Positions 150 to 43,300 of a stretch of DNA of 64,000 nucleotides are shown here, piece after piece. The DNA is from Prorocentrum cordatum (taxonomy: Eukaryota): the NCBI GenBank assembly GCA_963575745.1, contig CAUYUJ010000234.1, forward strand, positions 1-64,000. Reading direction: 5' to 3'. Below the pieces are notes generated by a model. That model was not told where the DNA came from, ran no database searches, and saw only the letters and a program-made list of their open reading frames with translations. Within the stretch, counting starts at the first letter, position 1, and the number at the start of each line of letters is the position of its first letter. The position numbers and the translations under genes were made by a program.

Positions 150-1400
150 CGCACAGCCTGCGAACATGTAAAAGTTCGCCGTCGCTGCGTCCGTGGACCT
201 CGCTGCGGGCCCCGCAATGCAAAATTGGATGGCCCTGCGCCCTAGAACGGCGCGCTGACGGGCCAGGCTGCTAACTCGGCGCATCGCCTTGACCAGCCTC
301 GCCACAGCGCGGGCATTGCGCCCGCGCACGCGCCGGGCGCCGCGCACTGCGCCATCAATCCCAGGGTTAACTGCCGATTATGTGCGAGCTCCTCGAGGTG
401 GCCCCAGTCGTTCCTGGATGTGTCTGGGAATCTCCTTCGACGGCGAGATCGGCCCAATCTTATCGAGGGGAATGTCGACATGGAGCACCGCCGAAATAAC
501 TTCCAGCTGCAAAGCGGCCGCGGGGAAGTCGTGGCAACTGGCGCGGGTCGACCCAATCGAACTGAGCCCCGGTCCGCCGAGGTAGGCGTCAAACGACGCA
601 CTCCTAAGGATAATTACACGCCGAAAGCGCCCAGAGCAAAAGCACTGATGAGGATGGTCACAAAACTGCGCCCCGCCATGGTGCCCACTCGGGCGCGCAT
701 CGGACTAGCCGCGACCCCTCCGAGCACCGCGAACTTAGCGGCCCTGCGCCCAGTAGGACAGACCGAGGCGATGGAGACACTGAAGCTGCGTTGGCGGCGC
801 CTCAGGGCCAAGGCTTCACTGGGGGCGCGCTCGTAATACATAATGAAATCCCAGAGCAGGGTGCAGGCGTGGTCCGATTGATTGCGGGCTCTCCCCGCGC
901 GGGCAGTTTGTTTCCAAGCCGCGCCGCTGGCCGACTTGCATTGGCCAGCAGCCCGAACAGAACGCCGGTTGGTTGCCCCCCGGCGCGTCGCGGCGCCGCG
1001 GCGGCACTTGCCCCCGAGGCGACGCAAGCTAGGGGGGCCAACGATCGGGCGGAAACCAGACGTGGGCTTAGATATCATCGCAATGATGACGGCGCGGATT
1101 TGAGCAGGCAACACCCCCGTCCACTCCTAAGAGGAGAGGGCCGGCAAGGCCCGTTCCGACAGGGGCGCAAATCGGCGCAAGTGCAAGCCGCCAAGCCCGA
1201 CCGCAGACCGCCGAGCGAAGGTCTTGGAAAACCTACAAATCTCGTCGATGGGGATGGGGGGAAGGGGTCGTCCACAATCCCAGCTTGCTTGACAGCCGCC
1301 TCCAGCGCTTCCCACTGACCTCTGAGACGGCGGGCCTCGTCGGCCAAGAAGGGCCGTGGGTCGGACGCCGCGATGCCCGCGGATCCTTCGCGACAGAATG
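150..1400 (-). pseudogene. Decayed non-LTR retrotransposon reverse transcriptase fragment
   Basis: Minus-strand peptide MISKPTSGFRPIVGPPSLRRLGGKCRR resembles RT domain 1 (K..g.RPI); LLWDFIMYYER resembles domain 3 (D..k.y[de]). The frame is broken by frameshifts and the boundaries are approximate. Confidence 0.6.
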
Positions 1401-24500: not shown

Positions 24501-27468
24501 TGCCAGGGTGAATGCGTTGACCAGAAAATCGATCAAACTTGGCGGTTTCATCAAGAGATTTCTGCAACTCAGGCGCGGTGTGGGTAGTGGAGTTGCTGTC
24601 GTCAACAATGGTAGTGCTGAGTGATCGCGGAACGTATCGATGCTGTCTCTTGGTCCACACACACATGAGCAGCTTAATGTCGTCCAGGGACCAAGAGCTT
24701 CCCTGGAGGTGCCCGTTAGTCCTGGCCAGTTCCTTAGAGTACGCACCGTTCATGCGGATGTAGCGTTTGTGGCGACTGTAGAAGTTTCTGCGGACAGTAA
24801 CGATGTCTTGGGGGCACCCCGCGTGAAGCGCAAGGTTAAGACAGATGTCCGTGATGAGGTAGTCGAAACACTTCTGTCGGTCCAGGGCAGCTCCAGCTAA
24901 GGGAAGGAGTAAGGCCCTGGCGTGTTCGATGCGCAGGGCAAGAGAGGTGCTGACGTCCCCAATGGTAGCTTTGGGGACAGCGCCAAAACTCGTGGCGTGG
25001 GTCCATCCTTTCCGCCAGTCCGTGAGGCTGCGGTAAGCTGGCGCTTCCCACGCATACATCCAAACGGAAAGCACCGAGAGAAGTCGTTGGTCCGTTGGGA
25101 GTTCGCCTCGGCCTTTTCGGAGGCACGGGTTTGGCACGTGGAGGAGGGGTTCTGGGATGGTGCCAGTGCGTTGCATAGCGCGTAGGACGCTGGCGAAGAG
25201 GCGAAGAATGTCGTCGGGTAACTCCTTAGCCTCCTTAGTAGTCCAGCCGTCCAGTCCCCCCGCGCGGCGCGGTGAACGGGTGCGAATGAAGTGGATGAGT
25301 TGGTCGTCGGTAAGGTGGAAAGGGGTAGCTGGTGATGGCGTAGGCAGCTCCTGTCGGTACTCGTCGTAGAAGTCGGCCCACGTCGGCATGGCTTCGGCGT
25401 CATGTCCCGCACGTGCACGGTACCTGCCCAAGATGGGCTCCCAGGTGTCGACCATGAGCTTCAGCATGTCCTTGGTGTTAGCAACAATGGCGTTGGCAGG
25501 GAGGATGTCGGGGACTTGCGCAGGTGGTGGTTCACGAGTGTGGTCTTCGTCGCTGTCCGTGTCGGGCGAACTACCGTCGCTGGGGCTGAAGCCGCCAGCT
25601 TCGGTGTCAGCGTCGCTGTCGTCCGTGCAAGCTTCGTCAGGTTTAAAGGCGTTGGTGTCGCAGTGGAGTTGCGTGTCGTCAGGTGTGGTAGGCGTGCGGA
25701 GATACGCCGTGGGCGAGCTGTCAGCAGCCCGTGCGTATATGGCCGCCTTTCGCCCGCTTGGCTCGCGGACGCCCTCAGCCCATATCTTGATGCGTTCAGC
25801 TTTGGCACGGTTCGCACGTCGCGCCAGCTCCAAGTCGAGGTGTTGGATCAAAACGTCAAGGTGCTCTCCGTGAGGCACTGGCTCGTCGGGGGTCCAGGCC
25901 TCGGGGAAGTCTAGGAGAACCGTGGGGCGCAGCTTGTGGCATAAGAGGCGGGCCGCGGTCCACGTGCAGTCGATGCGCTGCGCGAGGTACGGCGGGATAG
26001 CCCGGCAATCCAAATGATGGTGCTGTCCGATGAAACGGAGCTCACAGAGTTGCCGATGGAGCTTGCGCAGTCGGTTCATGTGTATCGTGGAAGCTCCGTA
26101 GGTGGGGAAGGCGCGGGGGACAACTGGTCGATCTTCGAACGTGGGCGTGAGCCCGTGCATGGTGGGGGGCTTCTTTTTTGGGTGGTCGGGCGGTGGAGGT
26201 GGCAGGTCGCGCAGACGGGTGAGATGGTACTCATGACTGGCCTCGTTAGCCAGGGCGAACATGCGCTCCACGTCGTCGCGTGTGTCGGCCTGTTCCATGC
26301 GGTCCTGATATCGCCCAGCGATGAGGGTCCCTAGTGCCTGCAGCTCGTGACCCTCATGAGCTCCATCGTCGGGAGGGTAGGGCGTGGGGGCAAGAAGACG
26401 TCGGGCCGTATGGTCGAGGCGACTGAGGTCAAGCGTGACCTGCAGGCCAACATGAGACTTCGCTGGCAAGTCGCGAAGGTAGCAGAAGTCGGTGACAAGG
26501 GATCGCGCCGCTTGGTTGGCAATGATATAATCGATGCGCGAAGTGCGGGGGCACTTGGTGACGCGGTCCCAGTCAGGGATATTGCCGTATGTGTGCATGG
26601 TGTGGTCTGGTGTGCCCTCAGCAACGTTGAACCATCCGTGCTGCAACATGTGCAGAAGGTGTGGGTTGTCGTCAATGTTCGTATTGGCGTCCATGCAGAT
26701 GAAGTAGGGGGCTGAGCCGACCCTCGCGGCGGCGCAGTCAGCGAGCCGAAAAAGAGCTGTGCTGTCTCCTCCAGCAATCCCGTAGAGGCTCGCTATGTAG
26801 ATCCCCGCGGGCCCGTGGTTGTTTCGTCGCCGCCTGCGGCGGTGTTGAGTGCAGAGCGGGAGAAAGACCTCGTGCCATCTTTTCTTGGCCTTGAGGGCGG
26901 CGATACAGGGCGCATTGTCGTCGACAGTGGAGTCGACAATGGCATCCTTAGAGAGGATGGCGACCCCTCCCGAGGCGCCAGTGTTGCCCACAACGGTGTG
27001 GTCTGTGCCGCCGTGGGCAGCTCTGCGCTGGGCTCGCGCCAGATCAAGGTCAGGTCCAAGACTGGCGTGGTATCCTCCGTGGAGTGGATTGGCGGCGCTG
27101 GTAGCGATGGCTTGCCTAGTCGGCTTGGCATGTCGGGTCTCCTGCAGTGCTATGACTGCGGCGTTGTGGTCGACACCAAGGGCGGTGATGGTTGGCCAAT
27201 TCGCTGCGAGACTGGTGATGTTAAGGCTGACGAGGTGTATGGAGCGACCTGGCCCGTCTCCATCGGTGGAGCTGGGGTTTGCACGCCCCGCGCGGTGAAG
27301 GTCAGCCTGACCCTCGCCCAGGTAGGAGGCTTGGCCACAGTAGGAGCTCATGGCGTTCCTATGGATTAGCTTGACCGGGGCTGAAGCCGCCGTCAGGCCA
27401 GGAAGTATAGGCGGGACACGGTCGGCACTGCGCCAGGGGGGGTTCATAAACGTCAGTAAAAATGTCAC
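21520..27468 (-). CDS. Intact pol polyprotein: APE endonuclease, reverse transcriptase, CCHC finger, RNase H (probable ATG at 27351)
   Basis: 1982-codon open frame. APE motifs: SLNIT, LQET, MDAN, SRIDYI, KSH. RT motifs: KGRG...DQRLLS, LDRQKCFD, QGSSWS, IVDD, KLVG. CCHC: CRYC-x8-H-x4-C. RNase H: ATDGAC, AETLA, VDNQ, VASH, NRQADALA. Confidence 0.95.
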   Translation of the reverse strand: MTFLLTFMNPPWRSADRVPPILPGLTAASAPVKLIHRNAMSSYCGQASYLGEGQADLHRAGRANPSSTDGDGPGRSIHLVSLNITSLAANWPTITALGVDHNAAVIALQETRHAKPTRQAIATSAANPLHGGYHASLGPDLDLARAQRRAAHGGTDHTVVGNTGASGGVAILSKDAIVDSTVDDNAPCIAALKAKKRWHEVFLPLCTQHRRRRRRNNHGPAGIYIASLYGIAGGDSTALFRLADCAAARVGSAPYFICMDANTNIDDNPHLLHMLQHGWFNVAEGTPDHTMHTYGNIPDWDRVTKCPRTSRIDYIIANQAARSLVTDFCYLRDLPAKSHVGLQVTLDLSRLDHTARRLLAPTPYPPDDGAHEGHELQALGTLIAGRYQDRMEQADTRDDVERMFALANEASHEYHLTRLRDLPPPPPDHPKKKPPTMHGLTPTFEDRPVVPRAFPTYGASTIHMNRLRKLHRQLCELRFIGQHHHLDCRAIPPYLAQRIDCTWTAARLLCHKLRPTVLLDFPEAWTPDEPVPHGEHLDVLIQHLDLELARRANRAKAERIKIWAEGVREPSGRKAAIYARAADSSPTAYLRTPTTPDDTQLHCDTNAFKPDEACTDDSDADTEAGGFSPSDGSSPDTDSDEDHTREPPPAQVPDILPANAIVANTKDMLKLMVDTWEPILGRYRARAGHDAEAMPTWADFYDEYRQELPTPSPATPFHLTDDQLIHFIRTRSPRRAGGLDGWTTKEAKELPDDILRLFASVLRAMQRTGTIPEPLLHVPNPCLRKGRGELPTDQRLLSVLSVWMYAWEAPAYRSLTDWRKGWTHATSFGAVPKATIGDVSTSLALRIEHARALLLPLAGAALDRQKCFDYLITDICLNLALHAGCPQDIVTVRRNFYSRHKRYIRMNGAYSKELARTNGHLQGSSWSLDDIKLLMCVWTKRQHRYVPRSLSTTIVDDSNSTTHTAPELQKSLDETAKFDRFSGQRIHPGKVAGWALTDELHAAVTQLTLAERPLRVVDSFKLVGSYINAEAAPAPAALNLTATADARVRRATSRLPRIGKLPSPMLIKARHARSLAASVCTTGTDIQAPSGPVKTAYNHALKAAIRPKGNRWVEFWTLMAVCVPGHALEIDAIMQREVFLCLRRQVNRDATLCGLVRDLQHHVQTLFGGGPVGRLVQTLQQLRWTWPTFGIMYDDWGCQISWLNLPQNAFLHMLRASQRRAFLRKIKPRRHDLGHLASVRQGLDLFASTWLARTKGAAKCNARQLALLLNYLSGGDHTQQRRSRSNASADPSPICRYCDEEEETQEHTVRDCKCWARERVPLTTLISDEQWARLPPHTRHCGLFDEDPALLDLQADLARDPLPQPIPRPPPEGDPAASAQDSYTTYLDHDTGWTWVYAATDGACTNQAIPLLARAGYGVYYGIDHRMNYSARVHGITQNAQLAETLAIVHLTACAERPVHVFVDNQAVVDGLQRIIDGHSPPQGTHVELWEKVHRCVMAKPNMFRVEKVASHQGDMGIDLGLIGPIAEEFNRQADALATTAARTHNLPDDIVEAAKSRHRQATVLHGVAVAIYERRHRTLPLPHRRAGFTAAELNKMEPNPLLSDQAPPAAGPDIPQTPDELWAEAQRAIFDEQEDDPFGFGGGLDFLGDGPASANPAPSGTRAAPPTPPLRAAAHPHDNAAHFQDADEQEDDLFSFGGGSDAVDDGPASENPALSGNLSTPTATSSPRAISPTYDEIGHRQDADHDLGDPRGPSGMEDAPPIPHAADHADLPRRQPSTRPTSEPLHGITTGPTAQTTPPPHRRQPAGAASAPPQGTKPDRPSCPIHASIAAEREEAAPPTSRGVALAAPALGSRRPLKSHFKGDGRQRTGSRTTLVHHLDRRTEDLASVSRPSAAGTEQPPLTDRETELSQAMAALQQRCLALAADLAAAQARQGPLLQRLHSAGRAFAELLRASPDGAVPTLNIQAMLSSFRDAPPGAPR

Positions 27469-30768: not shown

Positions 30769-30801
30769 TCCCCGTGTCCTCGCGTCCTCCAATGCTCCGA
30801 T

Positions 30802-30859
30802 CGATTGTGAACTTCCTCGTGCCTATATATATATATAAGCATGAGGAAGTTCACAATCG
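30802..30859. repeat. Imperfect inverted repeat centred on (TA)n
   Basis: CGATTGTGAACTTCCTCGTGCC-(TA)n-AGCATGAGGAAGTTCACAATCG, with two mismatches in 22-bp arms. Confidence 0.85.
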
Positions 30860-31338
30860 GAGTATATGGGGACGATTGTCAATCTCCTCGCCGAAGAGAT
30901 TGACAATCAGAGAAATCTCCGATGATGCCCATGGACGGGTCCTCGAGCCCGGTTCCTCTAGGGAGCTGCGGGCCCAAGGGCCGATGATATGGGCACCATC
31001 GGGGTCAAAATATGTAGTGGCCTCTTGACCCCCCCCCCGCTCGCCGCCCCCCCCCCGCGCCCCTGCGCCCGCAGGTGCAGACGCACGCGCTGGCGCCATC
31101 GCCGCGGCCGACGCAACGACGCATGACGCAAGTGACACGGCCGCTACAGCTCTGGAAGCGAACGCTTTTTTTTTTTTTCCGGCTATCGTGCTACACGGCA
31201 GCTTCAGGCCACCATGTGGCCGAGCTCCATCATAGCACCTGTCGACACATTGCCCTCGCGGCATCGTCGCGATGGCATCGCGGGGGTCGATCATGCCCTT
31301 CAATGGTGCGACCACGACGATGTCGCAAGGGCATGTGT

Positions 31339-32110
31339 CATGGTTTCATGGTTTCCTGGTCCATGGTTTTCGCATGGTTTATCAATGGTTGTTCCATGGT
31401 TTCACAATGGTTTTTCACGGATTCCTGGCTTCATGATTTCATTGTTTTCCCATGGTTTCTCCATGGTTTGTCCATGGCTTCCTGGTTTCATGGTTTCATG
31501 GTTTTTCCATGGTTTCCCGGTTTCACGGTTTCCTGGTTTCATTGTTTTTCCATGGTTTCACTGCGGTTTCACGGCTTCCTGGTTTCATGGTTTTTCAAAG
31601 GTTCCATGGTTTCTTGGTCTCATGGTTTTTCATTGTTTTTTCATGGTTGCGCAATGGTTTCACCATGGTGTCCTGGCCTCCTGGCTTCCTGGTTTCATGT
31701 TTTTTTTCAATGGTTTCACAATGGTTTCCTGGTTTCCTGGTTTCATGGTTTCATTGCTTTTCCATGGTTTCATATTTTCCTGGTTTCATGGGTTCCTGGT
31801 TTCGTGGTTTTTCCGTGGTTTCACCATGGTTTCCTGGTTTCCTGGTTTCACGGTTTTTCATTGGTTTCATGGTTTCCTGGTTTCCTGGTTTCCTGGTTTT
31901 TCCATGGTTTCACAATGGTTTCATAGCTTCCTGGTTTCATTGTTTCATGTTTTCCCATGGTTTTTCCATGGTTTCATGATTGCCTGGTTTCATGGTTTCA
32001 TTGTTTTTCCATGGTTTCCTGGCTTCCTGGTTTCATGGTTTCATGGTTCTTCAATGGTTCCACCATGGTTTTTCAGGTTTTCATGGTTTTTCCATGGTTA
32101 CATTGTTTTT
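31339..32110. repeat. Degenerate 8-10 bp satellite (CATGGTTT / CCTGGTTT)
   Basis: Directly visible tandem array; the long ORFs over it are artefacts of the repeat. Confidence 0.95.
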
Positions 32111-33295
32111 CCAAGTGTGATGATTTCTTTTGATTGTTTCTCGCATGGCGTGGCCACGCGGCATGGCCCTGCCGACAAAGCCGCATGGCAATGCCGCGCG
32201 GTTGAATAGACCATGGTATATCCATCATATGGGCGGCGGGCCTGCGCCAAAGCGCCTGGGGGGGGGGGGGCGTGCTTGTCGTCTGTTTTGCGCGCTCAGC
32301 GCTGATCTCTTTGCAGCGAGCGAATAGGTCCTTGCGCGCATGCGCAAAAAAAAGATACGATGAGCCGCGCGAGGGGGGCATGCACACGGGCCGATGCGTG
32401 GACGGGCGGGCGCCCCGGTTGGAAGGCGTCGCCGCGACGCCCCGCCACCCCTCCTTGCGTGTATATATATATATATATATATATAAAGCACCAACTAGCT
32501 TGCTCTCGCGCGTACCCAAGTGGGAGGGAGGCGACGCCGCCGAAAGGCAAAGCGAAGACGAAGCCTGGGGCGCAGAATTAAACAAAAAGGTGCGCAGTCA
32601 GCAAGAGCAAGAGAAGAGGAAACATAACGCCGAACATCACCAGGCTCAGGCCACGCAGGGGGGGGGGGGGGGCCCTGTAATTTCGCCGCGCCTGCATGGG
32701 GGAATCATATTGGCAGCGCTCCCTTGCGTGTGTGCTTGTATGTATATATATATATATATATATGGATACGCACTGCCCTCCTCAAGAGATAGGGGAGGGG
32801 GCGCCTGAAGAAAGAAGCGCCCGACATCTGGAGACAGTACAAGAAGGGCACCCACAACCAGAAACAAAAGCGGGCACGCGCGTGGGACGAGACGGGCTCC
32901 TTCGACCACATTCGCACGAAGAAGGTGGAGGCCCAACAGAAGGAAGAGTGGAAAAACGAGACCTCATCGTGGTTCTCCTGTTCGAAAATAAACCCTTTCT
33001 CGCCCCTAGCCAGCCGACTCGTCAGGGGGCGTGGGCGGAAACACCACAGAGAACAATTCCGCTCACGACATCTGAAAAGACTGCCGATGCATCCATATAT
33101 ATATATATATATGGACGGCGGCACCCTATCGGGCGATACCGATATGAGGCCGCCGAACGTCGACATCCCGAGGTCCCGTTACATCTGAAGAGGTATGTAG
33201 CATCTTGGGCGTTTTGTGGAACACTATGTGATTACATTCGCACAAGCACAGCTCCATAACGCTTTGCGTATAGCATGTCATCATTTTTATCTTTG

Positions 33296-34180
33296 GCCGA
33301 CCGGAGACCAGAGACCAGAGATTCGGGAAGACTCATCTCCGGTCGACCGGAGACCGGAGACCAGAGATTCCTGGGACTCATCTCCGGTCGACCGGAGACC
33401 GGAGACCAGAGATCTCCCAGGACTCATCTCCGGTCGACCGGAGACCGGAGACCAGAGATTCCTGGAGACTCATCTCTGGTCGACCGGAGACCGGAGACTG
33501 GAGATTCCTAGAGACTCATCTCCGGTCGACCGGAGATGAGTCCTGGGAGATCTCTGGTCTCTGGTCTCCGGTCGACCGGAGATGAGTCTCCAGGAATCTC
33601 TGGTCTCCGGTCTCCGGTCGACCAGAGAAAAGTCTTCAGGAATCTCTGGTCTCCTGTTGACTGGAGATCAGCCGCTCCATAATCTCTGATCTCCGGTCTC
33701 TGGTCGACTTCATTCGTCATGCAGGGCTCAAGCGAACAGTCGGTCACAGACGAGACCTGCGCGGCTACTATGCTTTTGTCTACCGGAGACCAGAGATTCC
33801 TGGAGACTCATCTCCGGTCGACCGGAGACCGGAGACCAGAGATTCCTGGAGACTCATCTCTGGTCGACCGGAGATGAATCCTGGGAGATCTCCGGTCTCC
33901 GGTCTCCGGTCGACCGGAGATGAGTCTCCAGGAATCTCCGGTCTCCGGTCTCCGGTCGACCGGAGATGAGTCTCCTGGAATCTCTGGTCTCCGGTCTCTG
34001 GTCGACCAGAGATATGTATTCAGGAATCTCTGGTCTCCGGTCTCCGGTTGACTGTAGATCAGCCACTCCAGAATCTCTGCGCATGGTCTCCGGTTTCTGG
34101 TTGATTTCATTCGTCATGCAGGGCTCAAGCGGACAGTCGGTCACAGACAAGACCCGCGCGGCTACTATGCCTTTGTCTGC
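33296..34180. repeat. Arrays of a ~46-bp unit with palindromic core TCTCCGGTCGACCGGAGA, arranged as two fold-backs
   Basis: Unit GAGACTCATCTCCGGTCGACCGGAGACCGGAGACCAGAGATTCCTG. Orientation flips at a perfect 30-bp palindrome (33513-33542) and again near 33865. A non-array block is duplicated at about 33711-33775 and 34108-34172. Confidence 0.92.
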
Positions 34181-34429
34181 GGACGAACGCCTCGCCGAAC
34201 TGCGCCGCCCAGATGATGGCGAGTCTCGTCTCGTCACCCTGACGGCTGCCCAGTGTTCGCGCCTGAGTTGGCAACGTGCATCGGATCTTCCCCGATCGGG
34301 AAATGGTCGATCTGGCACTTCGGAGTGCGATCCCAATCGTGTTTTAAGTGTCGCTATCTGGCATTCGTTCCTCCTGGGCCCCCTCTCGATCTGATCATCC
34401 GTCCCCCGCGGTCACATCGCCTGGAGGCG

Positions 34430-36919
34430 ATGGCGTTTGCGATCAATGCTGTCGGCCGTCGCTCAGCCGACCAAGGCAGGACGGTGAACCCTGAGGACGT
34501 GGAGGCCGCTCTCGACATGCCAGACTTCCTTTTCCGCCCAGTCGACCAAGTCGCCCACATGCTGAACCTGATCGACGTGGTGATGGCATGGTCGGGCAAC
34601 ATCGATGAGGAGACGGTCAAGGCGGCCGTGGAGAGCAGAGGGGCGCAGGCAATGGAGAACGTGCCAGATGTGCTGAAGATTCCAGCAGGAGCGCCTGCGA
34701 GCGTGAAGGCGCAGTTCGTTGTTCAGCGGGCTGGCGTTGGGCGGTGCAACGTGTTGCGCCACTTCATTTTCAAGCACGGCACCAGCCTAAAGCGCGCAGA
34801 CACGCGCCTGTACACCATGGGCCAGTCGGCGACGTTCCCTGCGGCCGAGGACTCCAACACTTGGGGCCAGCGGAAGAATTTCAATGCGATGCTCGACCGC
34901 TTGCCAGGATTCCAAGTGCGCCATTTCAGTGTGACCCGCAAGGAGCCCAGAGATCAGCAGGGGAAGGGCTGGGACCCCACGCCAGAAGAGATCCGCGACG
35001 GCTTCGCGTACATCCGCGAGCACTACCACGAGATTGCTGGTTCAAGCGCGATCGAAGCGCAGGAGTGGGTGCTTCTGCAGACTAAAATCCGATCGAGCGC
35101 TTGCTTTGGGTGGCCAACCAGCCAGATCGAGAAGGCGTTGGTGAACATGGACAAGGCATCAGCTTCGGCCGACGTAGACATATTCTTCCCGCTGACGTCG
35201 TACGACCTGCACCCTGTCATCCAGGAGCTTCTGCTGCCGTTGATCTACGCTTTCGCCCCGCTCTCTGGTACCATGGTGCTCGGCGCTCCCGGAGTGGGGA
35301 AGACTCCCTTGTGCCAGATTGCAGCCATGGCGTGGGGGCGGTACGTGACGCGGAGCAAAGGCATCGACAAGAAGCCTGGCTTCCGGCGGGGCAAACAGAT
35401 GGACGTCTTTCGGGATAAGGCAACGCCCGTGTATGAAGGCATCTTGCTCGACGACCCCTCTCTGGATCGCATTGACATCGAGGACCTCAAGGCCTTCGGT
35501 ACAGTCCACACAGCGGGTCATTGTGACGCTCGGTATACTCCCCCTAAGTGGGCCAAGGGCCAGTTCCACGCGCTTCTCAGCAACTGCTGGTCGGAAGATG
35601 CTGAGCCGCCAGACTCGGCGGAATTCTCCATCGACCCCCAGCTGTTCATGAGGATGCTCGAGAAGCCTTTCGGCTACCTCAGCCAGTCGCACAGGCTCGC
35701 CCTCACTAAGCGGTTCGTGCTCGTTGTGGTCGGCAGGCGCGCGTTGTACGTGCGAGCGCCTAGCTCCGATGACGCCGCCCAGATCTTTAAGTTCACTCAG
35801 GGCAACGTGGCCTCTGACTTTCTGTTGCCAGACCACAAGGACGCCCTCGCTGGCTTCTACCAGGGCATGGATCACGAGGACTGCGTGCACCCAGATTATG
35901 CGCTGCACGTCGAAAACGAATACAGTCTCGTATGCGAGGTGCAGGAGGCGGTGCGGCAGAAGACCGCAGAGGAGATCGCCTCGTGGTGGGCGAACCGCAC
36001 GGCCGATCGTCTATCGTCAGCCAGTGGCGCACCACCTGCGCCATCCATCCACCATGTCCCTGCGACTGCTGGTACGCAGGCATCCGACGCTGGCGGCGTG
36101 CGCGTGCGAGCGGATGCTGACGGCCAGTATCGCTTCCGCCTGCCAGCCGCGGGATCGCTGGCACCGCCAGGCGGATCGCGCCGCGCTTTCCGATACCCTC
36201 TCTCCGCGAAGCGTGAGCGCGAGGAGTTGGATCGGACCGACGCGCCTGGCGGCCCGAGGCCGAGGAGGGGCCTTGGCAGCGCCGCCGAGGGCGCTGCGCG
36301 GGCCAGCGCCAACGGCGCCAGATCGGCGTCGGGCGCGGGGGCGACGCCGCATGGCCTAAAGGAAGAGTTCAGCAGCCCCCCTGCGGCCCCCGCCGTGGAT
36401 AGCATTGGCGGCGCTGTGATCGACGTATTGTCCAGCGGAGAGGAGGGCGACGCTCCGCCCGCGCCGCTTGCTCGCTACCCGCGGGGAGCACGCCTGTGCG
36501 ACAGATCGTTTGGCTGCATCGTGTCGATGCAGTTCCGCCCCGAGAACGTGCGGCGCTACCCAGACTGCTGCATCCTGGATGCCCTGAACGCCATCGGCGT
36601 TCCCGTGCCTTACGATCACGCCGGCCCCTACACTTTGGATGAGGCAAAATCCCTGCTCAACCCGTTCGGTCTGTCGTTGCTCCGCTCGCATCCCAGATCG
36701 GCCAGAGGTTCTCAGGCAGGACGCTACATCATCGTTTACAGCATCGCACCCAATCGTCCTGGGCACGCTGTGGGTGGCATTGTATCCAAGGGCCGCGTGC
36801 ATTTCTTCGACGGTTTGCGAGAGCAGGTCCGTGCGGGCCATTCCGCCTGGCACCGGCTGCCCGACGGCACTCCCTCGTGGATCTGTGATTGGTATCAGGT
36901 GGTCTGCTGCGTCGCATGA
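34430..36919 (+). CDS. SF3 (CRESS Rep-like) helicase fused to a C-terminal papain-like cysteine peptidase domain, 829 aa
   Basis: Walker A GAPGVGKT (35282-35305), Walker B ILLDD (35441-35455), DARY followed by motif C LLSN, and a KRF arginine finger. The C-terminus has CCILDALNAI...GHAVG...HFFDG (Cys-His-Asp order). Intronless open frame. Confidence 0.8.
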   Translation: MAFAINAVGRRSADQGRTVNPEDVEAALDMPDFLFRPVDQVAHMLNLIDVVMAWSGNIDEETVKAAVESRGAQAMENVPDVLKIPAGAPASVKAQFVVQRAGVGRCNVLRHFIFKHGTSLKRADTRLYTMGQSATFPAAEDSNTWGQRKNFNAMLDRLPGFQVRHFSVTRKEPRDQQGKGWDPTPEEIRDGFAYIREHYHEIAGSSAIEAQEWVLLQTKIRSSACFGWPTSQIEKALVNMDKASASADVDIFFPLTSYDLHPVIQELLLPLIYAFAPLSGTMVLGAPGVGKTPLCQIAAMAWGRYVTRSKGIDKKPGFRRGKQMDVFRDKATPVYEGILLDDPSLDRIDIEDLKAFGTVHTAGHCDARYTPPKWAKGQFHALLSNCWSEDAEPPDSAEFSIDPQLFMRMLEKPFGYLSQSHRLALTKRFVLVVVGRRALYVRAPSSDDAAQIFKFTQGNVASDFLLPDHKDALAGFYQGMDHEDCVHPDYALHVENEYSLVCEVQEAVRQKTAEEIASWWANRTADRLSSASGAPPAPSIHHVPATAGTQASDAGGVRVRADADGQYRFRLPAAGSLAPPGGSRRAFRYPLSAKREREELDRTDAPGGPRPRRGLGSAAEGAARASANGARSASGAGATPHGLKEEFSSPPAAPAVDSIGGAVIDVLSSGEEGDAPPAPLARYPRGARLCDRSFGCIVSMQFRPENVRRYPDCCILDALNAIGVPVPYDHAGPYTLDEAKSLLNPFGLSLLRSHPRSARGSQAGRYIIVYSIAPNRPGHAVGGIVSKGRVHFFDGLREQVRAGHSAWHRLPDGTPSWICDWYQVVCCVA

Positions 36920-37498
36920 CCGCGATATTTTTTTTGCGCGATTGCCCGTTTCGCAGATGCGGTAGTTTGGCGTCGAGTGCAGAATGGGCGCCGATGCTGT
37001 GCTGATGTGAGTTTCCGTTGCTGCGCAGGCTCGTGGCGCGCGTGCAGGGCGCCGAGCACGCGCCCGAGGCAGAGGAGGGTCGGCGCGGCTTGTTTCGTCT
37101 TCTTTGTTGAAAGTCAGTTCGCATGGTAGTGGCCAAAATTGATTGAGCGCGCAGTCTTTGGCAGGGGAAATGCCCGCTGAACGGGGCGCGGCGCATTTCA
37201 TTTGAAGACTTCGCTGCGCTTTCCGCTGCGACGACGTGCAATCCATCATGGGTCCGATTGTCGCGGCAGCGGCGCGCCGCGTTTCATCCGTCACTTCTGG
37301 GCGCAGCCATGGCCGCTGCAGCGCGGGCGCTCTTCTGCGCAGGCCCCTTCGCCCGTGCGCAGCGCGCGGGGGGCGCGCCCCGCCCTTGCGGCCTCGTTTG
37401 GATTGCGTGAAGGAGTGGATGTGAAAATACACGTTGCATGTGTCTTTGGGTCGCACTTTTGTTGGCCAGTCTCATGCATCGACGTTGCTGGGTTGATA

Positions 37499-37520
37499 TC
37501 CGTAGGTATTTTTGCTCAAG
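37499..37520 (+). other. Relict dinoflagellate spliced leader upstream of the transposase
   Basis: TCCGTAGGTATTTTTGCTCAAG matches TCCGTAGCCATTTTGGCTCAAG at 19/22 positions and ends 21 nt before the ATG. Confidence 0.8.
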
Positions 37521-37541
37521 AAGAGATACCCGTTCTTTGAG

Positions 37542-38768
37542 ATGGGCAAATTTGTGCCGAAACGCGGTAGACTTCGCAATGGTCGCAGCGTCATGAAGAC
37601 TTTGAAGCTCATCAAAAAGCCTGCGGCGCAACCGCGCTCGCGGCAGAGTGCTCGAGCGCGCGCCACTTACACGCAGTCCGCGGCCGCGGAGATCAAAGGA
37701 GATCCACGCGATCGAAAAGTCAGTAAGAATTTGGTTGACCTGGCTCGCATGACGGAAGCAGAGATTTGGAATTTCATGCTCAAGGTTGATTTCGCGAAAG
37801 ATTTGCATGGGGAACGCTGTCCAGTGTGTAAGAATGGATATCTGGGTGCCAAGCAATTTCGATCTGATGGGAGTAAGCCGTTCCACCGCTGCTCGTCTTA
37901 TAAATGCCAGCACCGTGAGTTCCCATGGGGGCAATGTCCGCTTTTACACCATGGGCGACGTTCAGCTCCTCTCCAGCAGCAGCTCATGAACTTACTGTGC
38001 CTGTCCACGACGAACTCAGTGACTAGCACCATCCATTTGACGGGGCATGCGCGCAGGTCTGTCATACACACGCACGGGTTACTACAGAATGCTCGTAAGT
38101 TGTACGTGCAGCGGAAGGAGAAGACCATGACTTTTGGCAGTGACAAAAGAGTGCCAGCAGCGAAGTGGCACGACATCGAAGTAGACGAGGCCTCTTTCGG
38201 CAAGATGCTACTCCGACCTCCACGCAGCGCGTCTGACCACTGCCTCGCATGGGAGAACTGGATCGGTATTCTGCGCCGTGGTCACCCAGGTTCTCTCATG
38301 CTCATTCGTTCGAAAAACACGCCCACCCTGGCGAGATCGCCAGGTCCAGGACCGATCACGAAGGACCAGTGGAAATGCATAGCAAAGAAGCACTTGCAGA
38401 ACCGATGTGTCGTTATACACACAGATTCAGCACGAGCATACCGTGAAACCAATATTCCGGGAACGGTGCGGGACCAAGTCGTACACCAGAAGAAACGAGT
38501 TTTTAACAACAAGACTAAGCGGTTCACGTGGACGAAGCCTAAATACGTGGGCACTGTGCAGCACAGCGTCGATGGCAAACGATTTTGGCGCAAGTCTGGA
38601 ACTCAGACAGTTGATAGCTGCTGGAGATTCCTGAAGTCTCGCATTCACAAGAATCAATGTATGAAACCAGGCTCGCGCGCCTTTACGGTGGCAGTCAAGT
38701 CTGCACAGTACGAATATTGGACGAGAGGCATGGACCCTTGGGAGGCAATGTCTTTGCTGCTCAAATGA
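37542..38768 (+). CDS. IS1595/ISXO2-like (Merlin superfamily) transposase, 408 aa
   Basis: Zinc ribbon CPVC...RCSSYKC; catalytic motifs IEVDEASF, IHTDSARAY, VVH and GTQTVDSCWRFLK (third acidic residue is D rather than E). Confidence 0.9.
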   Translation: MGKFVPKRGRLRNGRSVMKTLKLIKKPAAQPRSRQSARARATYTQSAAAEIKGDPRDRKVSKNLVDLARMTEAEIWNFMLKVDFAKDLHGERCPVCKNGYLGAKQFRSDGSKPFHRCSSYKCQHREFPWGQCPLLHHGRRSAPLQQQLMNLLCLSTTNSVTSTIHLTGHARRSVIHTHGLLQNARKLYVQRKEKTMTFGSDKRVPAAKWHDIEVDEASFGKMLLRPPRSASDHCLAWENWIGILRRGHPGSLMLIRSKNTPTLARSPGPGPITKDQWKCIAKKHLQNRCVVIHTDSARAYRETNIPGTVRDQVVHQKKRVFNNKTKRFTWTKPKYVGTVQHSVDGKRFWRKSGTQTVDSCWRFLKSRIHKNQCMKPGSRAFTVAVKSAQYEYWTRGMDPWEAMSLLLK

Positions 38769-39260
38769 CAACTGTCGGCCGCGCATCTCTTGTCTCATCA
38801 TCATTCGAGCTGTTGGCTCGTGCAGGAGCCGAGCGGCCAGATTTGTTCAATGCTAGTGCGCGTGCAGACCTTCGCACTCAGATAGGCCTGAGACACTCCT
38901 CACGTGATCGCTTAATCGCTAGATGTTGCTGCGTCGCTGTTGGCTCATGCAGGAGCCAATCTGTCGAGCGCTTTAACGCTGTGCCGTATACAGTTGAACG
39001 CCACAGTTTGCGATCATCGGAACACTGCTTGATGTGAGCTAACATAAATTTATGATCACTCGAGTGTTTTAACGCTTTTGCGTATACAGTTAAACGCAAC
39101 AGCACGCGGCCATCGAAGCATTGATTATTTTGAGCCAGCAAAATGACTGATTGAAGTATGTGAGCATCCCCGGACCAGTTAAGATATCCTTGAGAAAGCT
39201 CCTAAAGAGGCCCCGGGGAGGGGGGGGTCAGGGGGGGAAAATGGCGCCGGGGCCGAGGCG

Positions 39261-39297
39261 GGAACCACATTTAGACTAATATTCTAAATGTGGTTCC
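39261..39297. other. Perfect 15-bp stem / 7-nt loop DNA hairpin
   Basis: GGAACCACATTTAGA-CTAATAT-TCTAAATGTGGTTCC. Confidence 0.9.
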
Positions 39298-39679
39298 AGC
39301 CCCATCCTCCGCACGGGTCCTGGATGGCCAACTGCGGTCCAAGGCACATTCGCAGACGCCCCAAACAGCTTCTGATAATTGCAAAAATGCAAACAAAATG
39401 GCGCAAAACGGCCTTCAATGTTTCCAAAATGCATGCCCCAGTGGGAAAAACACAATTGAAAAAAACGTTCCCGCATGCTTTTCCAATCTTATGTGTAAAA
39501 ACACGATATGCGGAAGGATTCGGACCAAGCGGAAGCCCGAAAACAAGGCCAACGTTGCACCGGGAACCGAATTTTGGAAGAATCAAGCACATTCAGATGG
39601 AAGAAGCAGATATGATAAAAACATCTCCCGGGATTGTTTCCGAATCCTATGTAAAAACAAGATGCGAAGGAGGGCCGAA

Positions 39680-40096
39680 TAGGAGGAGCAGGAGCATGAG
39701 GAGGAGGAGCAGGAGGAGGAGAAGGAGGAGGAGGAGAAGGAGGAAGAGGAGGAGGAGGAGGAGGAGAAGGAGGAGGAGGAGGAGGAGGAGGAGGAAGAGG
39801 ATGAGGAGGAGGAGGAGGAGGAGGATGGAAGAGGGACCTTCGTAAACAGGTCTAGGGTGAGAAACGGCGCTGGATTGATTCCACCCGCCTCCCCAGAGAG
39901 CCGACGTTCCAAACAAATTGGAACGGCAAGAGTTGGGTTCTTTACTTTCGTCCTCCTCCTCGCCCTCCTCGTCGTCCTCCTCCTCCTCCTGCACCACTAT
40001 GGGCCTCTTTGGGCCGTCGTGCCCAAACGGGTCCGTCGCTCCCTCGGCAGTGTGCGCTGGACCCTCCTTCCGTGGATTGCTTGCCTTGCCTCCTCC

Positions 40097-40131
<35 letters not shown>

Positions 40132-40150
40132 CTCCTCCTCCTCCTCCTAC
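39680..40150. repeat. (GAG)n and (CTC)n trinucleotide tracts
   Basis: Directly visible at about 39680-39830, 39950-39990 and 40088-40148. Confidence 0.9.
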
Positions 40151-41710
40151 TGGAGGCCTTCACCAGGCCTCGGAAGCATAAAAACCGATTCAGGACGAAA
40201 AGCTGTTCCCAGAGAAATCCTCGAAATGTGCAGATCCAGGGTGAGAAGCGGCGTTGGATTGAACTCACCCGCATAACTCAGAGGAGGCAGGGTGACACGA
40301 GGGTTGCTTTTTCGGCCTTCGAGGACCCTCGTCGCGTCTGAACGTGGCTCGGAAAACGGATGCGTTTGAACCCTGGGAGGGGTCCGGGAACCGATTTTGA
40401 ACCGAGTTCGGGCATCATTGTCTCACCGCCGTTATCTCACGTTGCCTTCTCTGAGTAACTGGTGCACCTGATCGGAACCACAACCATCACCGCAGCGCCA
40501 GTTGGGTTGATTGAGCCCCGACCGAGTAGAATGAGGAGGAGAGCTTGTGGCATTTTGCCTCGGCCGACACTTTGCCAGGGTTGTGGGTCACCGGCGTCTT
40601 CGATTTAACTGGGATACTCTTGAAAGTCTCATCGGCGACAGTGTATTTTCACGTGCTACCTTGGGCTAATCTTGATGTATTGTTGTCGCTTTCTCCGATC
40701 GTCTTCGAGCTCCGAGTTTCGTCTTGGAACTCTCGTAAACAAAGTTTGAGCTTCCTTGGATGCCCCAGTGGGCGTTTGAGTACTTGTTCAGCGTGTTTGC
40801 CAAATCCCTTGTCACACATGTTATTTTCCTAGTCGTAGTGATGCAGCTGATTATTTGTTATCTTCGATTCGTGTATCGTCCGAGCAACTTGGGCTCATTA
40901 GTAATATTGTCCCACGTTGCTGTTGTACCGAGCGCAGCTTCAGAACAATGCCAGAACATAAGAAAGACTTTCTTCAATTGTTGCGGGATGGAACCCCCAG
41001 CGAACGAACAGACGCAGTTGGTGTAGCTACAAAGCGGCTGCTAAATATGACGTTCAATGGCGTATTGAATGATGCGAACGGTGTGTATATCATATTCTTG
41101 ACGCTTCGCGCAACCCCACCAGCCCATCCAACACCAGGCGCTCGAACGAAGAACGCCGATGATCGGCAGCTGTTCTCCTCCCCCTTTTCCTCCTACTCCA
41201 CCGCCTTGTCGTCCTTTTCCTCTCCTCCTCCTCCTTCTCCCTCTCCTCCTTTTCCTCCTCCCTCTTCTCCTCCTCCTCTTCCTCCTCCTCCTTCCCTTCC
41301 CTTCCTCCTCCTCTTCCTCTTCTCCCGCTTCTTCCTCCTCCCTTGTGGCTTCTTGGAGGTATATTGGAACGTTTTGGCGGACTCTTGGGCCTTGCGGGCA
41401 GGCGGCCGGCGTTCCGCCCGCTCGCGCGCAGGCCAAGAGGAGAGTCCAAGACGTCTGTTGAAACCCTCTTGGAGGACATCGATCACAGAACGGGGGGCTT
41501 AAATTAGCAACGCCTTCCTTGGGGCCGCGATCCTCGTGAGGCCTGTCGAATTTTAGCTCTCCCAGGGGTCGATCTTGGACACTCTGACCGCTCGCGAACG
41601 CTCCTGTTCAGGTCAGTGGGAAGGAGTAGGGGGACGGATGCCCCTCCCCGAAAGGGAAGAAGGAGGGGCGGAAGAGGAAACGCCCTTTGCCAACGACGCC
41701 CAGAGGGCTG

Positions 41711-42976
41711 ATGGGATTTCAATTGCTACTTCGCCATCTCAATTTTGATACATGGTCACCGCTCCGAGTGTTCGCCACGCTCATGGCAGTGTATGTCGTC
41801 AAAAGGTGCACTGGGCGAAAGATTATCGATCGCTTTGCATACAAGCCAGGAGTGGCGACATTTTCGTTCACACTGCCGCTGTATTTCCGCATTGTTACTG
41901 CTGTCAACCCCTACAACAACGATGACCGAAACAGTATATCCAAGGTGATGGATTTGTTGCGCCTGCATCCAGTGTGGAAGGATGGGGATTCCAATGACAT
42001 TCTGCTAGCTGACCCTTTTTTCCAAAAGTTGCGCAATTGGTATATCCCACACGCTACAAGGGCAATGACCACAGAATCAGCAACTTATATTTTCGATCAG
42101 AAGTATGCGCGCGCGTTGCTTCTTACACTTTTAGTGGTTTTGTCGGTCAGGGCAGATCGTTTTCTGACATACTTGGTTGCGAATCCTGCATTCCTTTTGT
42201 TCGACGAAGAATGCTTGCCGCTGCTCTACAGGGGCGTTGTATTAGGAAAATCGTTGTACCTTGGGTTGCGAGATAATTCAGTCGCCGCGAGATGTTGCGC
42301 CACCACAGAGCAGAAACTTTGGAGAATCGGAGATCTAGTTGATTCGATCCTTGTTCCATGCTGGGAATGTCCTGAAAAGACCCTCGACCCGATTCTGAAT
42401 GCAACTTCGGTGGCTGATCTCGCAAAGGCTCTCATGGGCATCAACAAGACAAAAGGTAAGCTTGTGTTCAGTCATTCGATAGAATACTTGTTCTTACTGC
42501 ACGAGCAAGCATGCAAGGCGAAACGGGCGTCAGTTTTTAAATTCGCCCTCGATATGCAAGCACTCGACGACCACATTCTCTTGGGAACGAATGGAGAAAT
42601 ATTCGAAGAATGGATCAACGCGCACCCCGCCGGGAACCGAGCTGCCACTAGCGCGCGAAAGCGTTCCACGGTCCACGACCTGGCTGCTGCGGTGAATGAG
42701 ATGCTCCCGCTGTCCATCCACTACACTGACGGATCTGTCACCTACACTCAGCATTTCGGCGCGACATCTGCCCAGCAGACATCGTGCAAGATGGTGCAAG
42801 TTGCCCAGACGTATATCACGGGCAATACGGGCGGCAAGGACAGGGATCCAAACGGCAACGCAGCAGGTAAGAAACGGAAGCGAGGAGAAGTTGTGTCTTT
42901 GAAGCACGACGAGCCCGCCAGCAATTTGCGCCGCGTGCGCAAGAAAGCGCCCAGGCTGTCCTTCGTGCGGGCCTGA
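41711..42976 (+). CDS. Uncharacterised ~420-aa protein with basic C-terminal NLS-like tail; possible divergent aGPT-Pplase1/ADDT (5hmU-DNA modification, HhH fold) homolog; possible upstream exon 40948-41080
   Basis: Long, non-repetitive open frame in lower-GC DNA with KKRKR near the end. The motif order resembles the family. A GT donor at 41081 and an AG acceptor at 41704-41705 would join the upstream exon in frame. The CDS is likely; the function is tentative. Confidence 0.65.
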   Translation: MGFQLLLRHLNFDTWSPLRVFATLMAVYVVKRCTGRKIIDRFAYKPGVATFSFTLPLYFRIVTAVNPYNNDDRNSISKVMDLLRLHPVWKDGDSNDILLADPFFQKLRNWYIPHATRAMTTESATYIFDQKYARALLLTLLVVLSVRADRFLTYLVANPAFLLFDEECLPLLYRGVVLGKSLYLGLRDNSVAARCCATTEQKLWRIGDLVDSILVPCWECPEKTLDPILNATSVADLAKALMGINKTKGKLVFSHSIEYLFLLHEQACKAKRASVFKFALDMQALDDHILLGTNGEIFEEWINAHPAGNRAATSARKRSTVHDLAAAVNEMLPLSIHYTDGSVTYTQHFGATSAQQTSCKMVQVAQTYITGNTGGKDRDPNGNAAGKKRKRGEVVSLKHDEPASNLRRVRKKAPRLSFVRA

Positions 42977-43251
42977 GTTTGTCTTCCTTCGTCCGCGCAC
43001 GTGCGTCGAGGCATTGCCTGCCCTGCTGTCGTTATCCCGTTTCCCAGTCAGAAGTGCTTGAGAGCGCCTGCAGAGAGAATCCGCCACCGAGAAAAAATTA
43101 TAGCCCATCCGTTGCCATTGCAGCAGGCCGCATCTACCACCGTCGTTGATCGTGCATTTCTCGGGAGCGCACGACAACCGCGCGTATTGCCCGATAGGGT
43201 GCCGCCGCGCATATATATATACACATATGTATGTGCATATATATATAAATA

Positions 43252-43300
<49 letters not shown>

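Follow-up and report, generated by a model that had tools for sequence, protein, structure and literature searches.

The 64-kb window analysed here comprises positions 1 to 64,000 (forward strand) of contig CAUYUJ010000234.1 from the dinoflagellate Prorocentrum cordatum (assembly GCA_963575745.1), and the subject of this work is a 10,098-bp segment within it, at 33113-43210. On balance, this segment is best read as an intact copy of a dinoflagellate lineage of IS1595/Merlin transposons that has two co-oriented core genes, open reading frame 1 (ORF1) and ORF2, and that would multiply by the mechanism proposed below. ORF2 encodes a transposase, and ORF1 encodes an ATPase with a predicted fold resembling that of viral Rep proteins. 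An initial annotation of this DNA, made from its letters alone, had described a composite transposon with inverted termini, palindrome arrays and three intact co-oriented ORFs. The three ORFs were recovered, with products of 829, 408 and 421 amino acids (Table 1). As a single three-gene element the proposal held in part: ORF1 and ORF2 form a conserved unit, and ORF3 was found in none of the related loci listed.

Conservation of the ORF1-ORF2 pair

Scanned against metagenome contigs, the ORF2 alignment matched at least 42 loci, and all locus counts in this text are among the 42 loci listed. ORF1-like sequence was located upstream of the ORF2-like gene and on the same strand in 14 of the 42 by tblastn (E ≤ 1e-3). 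A profile hidden Markov model (HMM) of ORF1 gave a match in 19 of 42, none of them on the opposite strand; six of these 19 loci had contributed to the HMM. Among loci with at least 2400 bp of DNA upstream of ORF2, 17 of 22 carried ORF1-like sequence, always on the same strand, and where a full-length ORF2 match was present as well the count was eight of eight (two of these loci, L027 and L028, are the same in sequence). This arrangement supports ORF1 and ORF2 as one conserved unit, rather than the independent insertions that the initial annotation had allowed for. The pairing is also old, since ORF1 is only 21-35% identical to its metagenome relatives. Intact ORF1-like ORFs of 569-648 amino acids were present in L001, L002 and L041, and one gene model (P0066) fuses an ORF1 fragment to ORF2. 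No description of the pairing was found in the literature searched, which was without most subscription journals and Repbase.

Six relatives in which both ends were located are 5.2-5.7 kb long and contain two genes only. The distance from ORF2 to the right end is 0.2-1.3 kb in these six, versus 4.4 kb in the window. L009, one of the five among the 22 loci in which ORF1-like sequence was missing, contains a 1.46-kb deletion derivative with both ends kept. This segment (L009 6925-8388) has both end motifs and the C-terminal half of the transposase gene only, and is a non-autonomous deletion derivative of the same transposon family.

Ends of the element and the target site

The 22-mer GGCGGCACCCTATCGGGCRATA has exactly two matches in the window, at 33117-33138 on the plus strand and 43185-43206 on the minus strand, and the pattern was matched in none of 100 shuffles of the window. 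These positions coincide with the 24-bp inverted termini of the initial annotation (arms 33116-33139 and 43184-43207, agreeing at 23 of 24 positions). Comparison with relatives moved the ends outward by 3-4 bp, to 33113 (GGAC...) and 43210 (...GCGC), and the extended arms of 26 bp agree at 23 of 26 positions. The (TA)n tracts noted beside both termini were likewise confirmed (Table 1). A comparable TA tract ends within 25 bp of only 0.35% of window positions.

Similar junctions were seen in the relatives. In the window, the left junction reads (TA)9 followed by GGACGGCGGC..., and the right junction, read inward, (TA)5 followed by GCGCGGCGGC... In the metagenome loci, left ends read (TA)n followed by GGTAC(4-10)... 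and right ends, read inward, (TA)n followed by GCTA(A)C(4-10)... A GG start directly after (TA)n was found in seven of eight plus-strand matches to the end pattern, and a GC start directly after (TA)n in 16 of 19 minus-strand matches. This asymmetry between GG and GC termini is common to the window element and its relatives. Three pairs of terminal inverted repeats (TIRs) were detected without reference to TA, in the window, L007 and L011. A (TA)≥4 tract is located 5-15 bp beyond each of these six ends, against background rates per position of 2.1% (loci) and 0.35% (window). The two occurrences of the TIR, its absence from the shuffles and the end motifs common to relatives support the earlier call of a TIR transposon, and the element is very probably a TIR DNA transposon of the IS1595/Merlin kind.

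The statement in the initial annotation that no target-site duplication (TSD) was visible does not hold for the corrected ends, where the outer 8 bp are identical on both sides (ATATATAT), though this is little informative within a microsatellite. An 8-bp TSD in a TATATATA-like target would fit these flanks but is not proved by them.

Other observations concern TA tracts in and around the family. A 28-bp inverted repeat surrounds (TA)7 at window 30795-30865 (single-stranded fold z = -10.9); it may represent a footprint, or else a very small fold-back element, at a further TA tract. Additional TA tracts cluster a short distance upstream of the element, at 32462 and 32743. In L007, a 124-bp segment (6241-6364) has the left-end motif at its start and a right-end-like motif followed by (TA)n at its finish. 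This segment has the appearance of a miniature derivative located at the border of the full element, which would fit an attraction of further insertions by the TA flanks.

The ORF2 transposase

A word-based search with ORF2 found nine relatives, including Symbiodinium proteins at 32-36% identity, and a profile of the relatives matched 1525 proteins of a representative library at E ≤ 1e-3. The NCBIfam model NF033547 matched ORF2 with an E-value of 4.6e-7 (29.9 bits; residues 142-325 against profile positions 4-172 of 215), and at E ≤ 1e-3 it matched 22 of the 48 family members scanned (5 of 11 and 17 of 37), as the sole family matched. The Merlin transposase named in the initial annotation is borne out to the extent that ORF2 is of the IS1595/Merlin kind. 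Pfam gave no match in ORF2 itself. Matches to Pfam PF12762 among ORF2 relatives were weak and all below the gathering score (1 of 10, E 0.026; 4 of 36, E 0.014-0.022), and Zn_ribbon_IS1595 matched one of 36 relatives (E 0.013). A scan of viral contigs with the ORF2 alignment and a tblastn search of plasmids with ORF2 gave no match.

The catalytic blocks of ORF2 line up by eye with a Merlin protein from the available part of the PMC8101967 supplement, and the third catalytic residue of ORF2 is Asp, not Glu. In the part of PMC8101967 available, the PF12762 domain serves as the criterion for IS1595/Merlin; Merlin elements are described there as single-gene elements whose TIRs begin with GG, with TSDs of 8-9 bp and without a zinc ribbon, and the zinc ribbon is said to occur in other IS1595 groups and to be missing from Merlin and IS1016. 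Because Merlin is described as single-gene and without a zinc ribbon, ORF2 is classed from its sequence as a member of the IS1595/Merlin superfamily and not as a canonical Merlin.

Just upstream of ORF2 there is a relic of the dinoflagellate spliced leader (Table 1). About 0.015 such matches per window would be expected by our own arithmetic. The relic is absent from the 42 related loci and hints that an ORF2 complementary DNA was recycled into the window copy.

The predicted fold of ORF1

A model of ORF1 residues 1-530 was made with AlphaFold2 from a 31-row alignment that included the metagenome relatives, and its mean predicted local distance difference test score (pLDDT) was 84.5. An earlier model from eight rows had a pLDDT of 40 and was useless. 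With Foldseek, the model gave 413 matches in BFVD at E ≤ 1e-3. The named rows among the top 50 were all Reps of CRESS-DNA-type viruses, with the exception of one parvovirus non-structural protein. E-values in this top 50 ranged from 5.6e-9 to 1.5e-6, and both domains of ORF1 are covered by these matches, since the alignments span 400-550 columns. Five matches in the PDB were at E ≤ 1e-3: ClpC (twice, 2.7e-4 and 4.4e-4), the Rep68 protein of AAV2 (3e-4, 541 columns), the Vientovirus Rep (6.5e-4) and GspE (9.6e-4). IstB (1.3e-3) and NS1 of B19V (2.1e-3) were next. The model contains in three dimensions the parts of the Rep architecture, namely an HUH-fold domain, a helical bundle and an ATPase, and ORF1 is accordingly likely to be Rep-like in fold. 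The SF3 helicase of the initial annotation thus stands, at the level of the model, as a helicase-type ATPase, of the SF3 or another ASCE clade, with a viral Rep architecture.

Within the ORF1 family, the Walker A, Walker B, downstream Asn and Lys-Arg motifs are conserved. The closest proteins to ORF1 are named Prorocentrum cordatum, with 68-81% identity. The ORF1 alignment found no relative when scanned against metagenome contigs or against viral contigs. One protein of 526 amino acids (P0012) is 99.6% identical to ORF1 and has the EukProt label of a green alga (Pyramimonas), which looks like a mislabel or contamination. In two other homologs (P0010 and P0014) the Walker A lysine is replaced by Glu (GVGE). 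Since GVGKT is intact in the window copy, this copy of ORF1 looks functional from its sequence, and some paralogs do not.

Iterons and palindromes upstream of ORF1

The palindrome arrays claimed in the initial annotation were found at 33287-34094. Their GGAGACC heptamers run first in direct and then in inverted orientation, the arms reach 232 nucleotides at 89% complementarity, and within the element GGAGACC and GGTCTCC are confined to 33303-34085. The block at 33398-33781 is repeated as 33782-34178 with 86% identity. As single-stranded DNA, 33375-33660 (the first array) folds with -140.7 kcal/mol (z = -20.9).

Four relatives have inverted arrays of other short iterons (7-10 nucleotides), located inward of the left end by a few hundred bp. 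The iterons are GATTCAA in L007 (47-nucleotide arms, 98% complementarity), GGTACTAGGA in L011, AGAAGTA in L024 and GATCCAA in L029. Lineage-specific iterons around palindromes beside an initiator gene are the layout of Rep, large T and P4 origins. Because the layout of iterons and palindromes beside the ORF1 gene matches these origins, the arrays are proposed as a candidate ORF1 binding site and an origin-like site.

A different repeat is found nearer the ends. The 17-mer TAACGCTTTTGCGTATA occurs at 38974-38990 and 39070-39086, just after ORF2 (two occurrences, 0.04 expected), and a near-copy with a 1-nucleotide deletion was seen by eye at about 33257, some 140 bp inside the left end. These copies may be subterminal binding sites.

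Additions specific to the window copy

Two lineage-specific additions distinguish the window copy. ORF1 is extended at its C-terminus by a fused Cys/His domain, and the 3' part of the element is a 4.4-kb segment with ORF3. The Cys/His domain, with Cys (DCCILD, residue 712) and His (GHAVG, residue 778) motifs, is absent from the metagenome relatives, and no Pfam family matched residues ~690-829. Atlas gave YopQ (0.92) and Gln_amidase (0.87) for this region, as leads only. The protease of the initial annotation corresponds to this Cys/His domain and is a putative one. A small HMM of the domain matched P0163 (E 5e-4), in which two such domains are located upstream of the transposase part, and weakly P0040. 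By BLASTP, the domain aligned with P0040 over one segment of 22 residues (E 0.08) and gave no match to P0035, in which an OTU domain is fused to the transposase (PF02338, E 1.4e-6). With the OTU domain of P0035 and the Cys/His domains of P0163, protease-like modules recur in the ORF2 family.

The 3' segment, like ORF3 itself, was found in none of the 42 relatives, so the view of ORF3 as part of the conserved element is not supported. The single homolog of ORF3, P0017, is 82% identical over residues 147-420. No Pfam or NCBIfam family matched ORF3, and its best Atlas score was 0.81 (PARI_N), a recognition below the mark. The initial annotation had suggested a DNA-modification gene; with no methylase, glycosylase, TET/JBP or similar match in Pfam, NCBIfam or Atlas, and one homolog only, this suggestion finds no support. 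The perfect hairpin that it reported was located between ORF2 and ORF3 (Table 1). G-rich runs at about 39215-39240 are ~450 bp past the ORF2 stop, the distance at which the right end with its G-run is found in relatives. It is speculative that the ancestral right end was located here and that the 4-kb ORF3 segment was added later.

Table 1 Features of the element at 33113-43210 and its flanks (window coordinates; residue numbers for protein parts).
Feature	Position	Strand	Evidence and remarks
Left flanking (TA)9 tract	33095-33112		Target microsatellite; last 8 bp ATATATAT, possible TSD copy
Left terminal inverted repeat	33113-33138	+	GGACGGCGGCACCCTATCGGGCGATA; GG start, like left ends of relatives
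Two palindromic arrays	33287-34178		GGAGACC/GGTCTCC heptamer iterons in 46-bp units; ~385-bp block twice in tandem
ORF1, Rep-like protein, 829 aa	34430-36919	+	Intact ORF; AlphaFold model, Foldseek, alignment
ORF1 HUH-fold N-domain (alpha/beta), predicted	aa 41-167, nt 34550-34930	+	AlphaFold model
ORF1 three-helix bundle, predicted	aa 185-244	+	AlphaFold model
ORF1 ASCE ATPase, AAA+/SF3-type	aa ~250-470	+	Walker A 285-292, LLDD 339-342, LLSN 382-385
ORF1 C-terminal helices	aa 490-529	+	Followed by low-complexity linker
ORF1 Cys/His domain	aa ~690-829, nt 36497-36916	+	Small HMM, motif comparison
Spliced-leader relic CCGTAGGTATTTTTGCTCAAG	37500-37520	+	17 of 21 positions; ends 21 nt before ORF2 ATG
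ORF2, IS1595/Merlin-type transposase, 408 aa	37542-38768	+	NF033547 match; alignment
ORF2 zinc ribbon	C93, C96, C117, C122	+	Four nearly invariant Cys, CxxC...CxxxxC
ORF2 catalytic core	D215, D295, D358, then K365	+	Invariant or nearly so in 10-row alignment; D-D-D(x6)K
Lineage-specific 3' segment, first part	38769-41710		No recognisable gene; 17-mer repeats, hairpin, (GGA)n/(TCC)n tracts
Perfect hairpin	39261-39297		15-bp stem, 7-nt loop, z = -6.85
ORF3, passenger gene, 421 aa	41711-42976	+	Basic C-terminal tail; aa ~136-421 conserved in single homolog P0017
Right terminal inverted repeat	43185-43210	-	Minus-strand reading GCGCGGCGGCACCCTATCGGGCAATA; GC start, like right ends of relatives
Right flanking (TA)n-rich tract	43211-43297		(TA)n 43211-43221, continuing to 43297; first 8 bp ATATATAT

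DNA surrounding the element

The DNA around the element is repeat-rich and includes ORFs resembling those of long interspersed nuclear elements (LINEs), with Exo_endo_phos domains. A minus-strand ORF of 1975 amino acids at 21523-27447 has this domain. Judging from this ORF and the further minus-strand ORFs of great length located between positions 2.5 and 29 kb, the left half of the window is apparently filled with LINE-like retroelements. To the right, a perfect copy of the spliced-leader motif (21 of 21 positions; 61622-61642, plus strand) is located near the start of an open-ended ORF at 61516-63999, whose 828 residues also include an Exo_endo_phos domain; the apparent source is a LINE-type transcript that was trans-spliced and then retroposed. 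Positions 31338-32113 are a long degenerate satellite whose unit of 8 bp (TCATGGTT) is present in about 80 copies, with higher-order periodicity of up to 247 bp.

Discussion

In the proposed mechanism, the ORF2 transposase, with its zinc ribbon and the residues D215, D295 and D358, would cut at the 5'-GG...GC-3' ends and integrate the element into (TA)n, probably duplicating 8 bp. ORF1 would be akin to polyomavirus large T and papillomavirus E1, with a Rep-fold DNA-binding domain, a helical bundle and a ring-forming ATPase. Its binding sites would be the heptamer iterons, specific to each lineage, of the palindromes that closely precede the ORF1 gene, and it would melt or unwind the DNA at these sites. 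Host replication machinery would then copy the element, in place or after excision, and a cut-and-paste enzyme would thereby achieve a net gain of copies. An initiator or unwinding role for ORF1, suggested by its modelled fold, is put forward tentatively, as a possibility somewhat short of probable. The full claim, of a transposon with its own replication initiator in which a nuclease-dead helicase like Rep or large T fires an internal iteron origin and a DDD transposase inserts the copies into (TA)n, is bolder and rather doubtful.

Several findings weigh against the reading of the element given at the outset. By sequence, ORF1 could be linked to no Rep, SF3 or other named family, and searches of Pfam, NCBIfam, PHROGs and PDB profiles gave matches at the level of the Walker A motif only. 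In a reading of the 31-row alignment, as distinct from a structural superposition, the ORF1 family has neither an invariant His-x-His nor an invariant Tyr, so that the N-terminal domain is probably a DNA-binding domain rather than a nickase; the same arrangement is that of large T antigen and E1, with origin-binding domains that have the HUH fold but no nuclease activity. The iteron arrays are present at one end of the element only, no iteron array was found in L002, and L004 and L012 have small palindromes alone. Pairwise identities of ORF1 and ORF2 across 19 elements are weakly correlated (Spearman 0.25, a value reached in 123 of 2000 permutations). On the side of the transposase, none of the NF033547 scores reaches the curated 75-bit cut-off, and ORF2 itself has no PF12762 match at E ≤ 10. 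The outer 8-bp flanks agree at all eight positions in the window, at seven in each of L009 and L024 and at four in L007. This agreement is little proof of a TSD because all flanks are located in (TA)n; a TSD is not provable from them. The element also contains no polymerase, primase or capsid gene, in keeping with the caveat in the initial annotation that neither a capsid nor a polymerase gene had been seen.

The reading was weighed against four other explanations. ORF1 could be an AAA+ regulator of transposition like MuB, IstB or TnsC, which binds the (TA)n target and hands it to ORF2 without any role in replication. The conserved proximity of ORF1 to a DDE-type transposase within TIRs would suit such a regulator, and the very strong (TA)n bias asks for a target selector. 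However, the full-length fold matches of ORF1 are Reps, with the N-terminal domain included, and no sequence match was found to the IstB_IS21, TniB or MuB models; hhalign of the ORF1 family against a single MuB sequence gave a probability of 16% over 26 columns. Lineage-specific iteron palindromes beside the gene are foreign to MuB-type systems, and ORF1 is upstream of the transposase gene, unlike the arrangement in IS21, Mu and Tn5053. A regulator of this kind is therefore considered unlikely. A Rep captured from a CRESS-DNA-type virus, carried as a passenger, selfish or regulatory gene (for example, as an operator-binding repressor) with no mechanical part, would also have the fold of viral Reps and could have lost its catalytic HUH and Tyr residues, as ORF1 apparently has. 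The family does acquire other modules (the OTU domain in P0035, the Cys/His domains in P0163, ORF3 in the window copy). Yet the position and strand of ORF1 are kept across lineages of 25-35% identity, its ORFs are intact in the three loci named above, its ATPase motifs (Walker A and B, downstream Asn, Lys-Arg) are conserved, and the iterons vary from lineage to lineage. Retained synteny, intact ORFs, conserved motifs and varying iterons argue together for a selected ATP-dependent function tied to the element, and a captured gene without a mechanical part is decidedly unlikely.

That the segment is an integrated small DNA virus, with ORF1 as replicase, ORF2 as integrase and ORF3 as structural protein, is very improbable. 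A Rep-like gene does adjoin an integrase-type gene, ORF3 has a basic tail, and modules combining replication with integration are discussed for small eukaryotic DNA viruses in the available part of bioRxiv 10.64898/2026.10.13.758929. Against this, ORF3 is missing from all 42 relatives and has no capsid or other family match, the relatives for which both ends were located are two-gene elements of 5.2-5.7 kb, and neither the ORF1 nor the ORF2 alignment had a match in the viral contigs scanned. An artefact of chance or assembly, in which unrelated neighbouring genes are framed by a coincidental inverted repeat, could be considered because the window contains a single copy; with no TIR in the shuffles, and with synteny and end motifs common to independent contigs, it is barely conceivable.

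The reading of the segment as a two-gene IS1595/Merlin-type transposon has several implications. Eukaryotic DDE transposons are thought to depend on host replication and repair for their gain in copies, and initiators of the Rep type have been described in viruses, plasmids and Helitrons. The conserved combination of a Rep-like protein with a DDE enzyme inside one TIR element would be a new route by which a transposon copies itself, and would give viral Rep genes a new context for persistence in nuclear genomes. If the bolder claim is true, this would be the first eukaryotic cut-and-paste transposon with a virus-type module of initiator and origin, and a direct evolutionary bridge, in either direction, between the Reps of CRESS-DNA viruses and DDE transposons. 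Dinoflagellate genomics gains an autonomous DNA-transposon family with recognisable ends, (TA)n-GG...GC-(TA)n, and its marked preference for (TA)n targets may help to explain clusters of TA microsatellites.

Comparison with known systems

The element is a variant of the IS1595/Merlin superfamily. It resembles Merlin and IS1595 elements in its DDE-type transposase, which is related to IS1595 models, and in having TIRs, GG at the left end and flanks compatible with an 8-bp duplication. It departs from them by its Rep-like second gene, its iteron palindromes, its GG/GC termini and its (TA)n targeting. The conserved second gene contrasts with the single-gene descriptions of those elements in the part of PMC8101967 available, and the N-terminal zinc ribbon of ORF2 sets it apart from Merlin and IS1016 as described there. 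The third catalytic residue is Asp, and PF12762 does not detect ORF2. The right end begins with GC instead of the GG of Merlin, and insertion is in (TA)n. Sy.m_F1 of Symbiodinium, in the part of PMC8101967 available, similarly has internal tandem and inverted repeats near its 5' end. It was considered as a member of the same family and rejected, since the protein and TIR in the supplement differ, and ORF2-family motifs were not found in the supplementary sequences of that paper. Introner elements were also rejected, as unrelated; they have 4-bp TSDs in the available part of PMC9860276.

With the Reps of CRESS-DNA viruses and parvoviruses, large T and E1, ORF1 has in common the predicted order of HUH-fold domain, helical bundle and P-loop ATPase, and, with viral Reps, the short iterated sites around palindromes beside the gene, for which binding is proposed. 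It differs from viral Reps in having no detectable sequence similarity to them, in the apparent lack of the His pair and the Tyr, and in its location inside a TIR/DDE transposon of a nuclear genome with no capsid gene. The bacterial pairs IS21 IstA/IstB, Mu A/B and Tn7 TnsB/TnsC likewise combine a DDE-type transposase with a P-loop ATPase in one element, and IstB is among the fold matches of ORF1. Unlike these ATPases, ORF1 has a Rep-like N-domain in its model, full-length matches to Reps, no sequence match to them and a eukaryotic host.

The annotated record of phage P4 has 120-bp direct repeats with octamer iterons in both orientations beside the gene of an SF3 primase-helicase, a layout that resembles the duplicated ~385-bp iteron block upstream of ORF1. 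ORF1 differs from P4 alpha in having no primase domain, and hhalign of its family against the single P4 alpha sequence gave a probability of 0.5%, at the Walker A motif only. A protein of the replication-initiator type is combined with mobility in Helitrons and in the modules for replication and integration of polinton-like elements and transpovirons as well. Helitrons rely on an active HUH nuclease with an SF1 helicase and lack both TIRs and a DDE enzyme. The concept of such modules is discussed in the available part of bioRxiv 10.64898/2026.10.13.758929, where polinton-type modules are described as a protein-primed PolB with an rve integrase. In the present element, the combination is instead that of a Rep-like protein with an IS1595-type enzyme.

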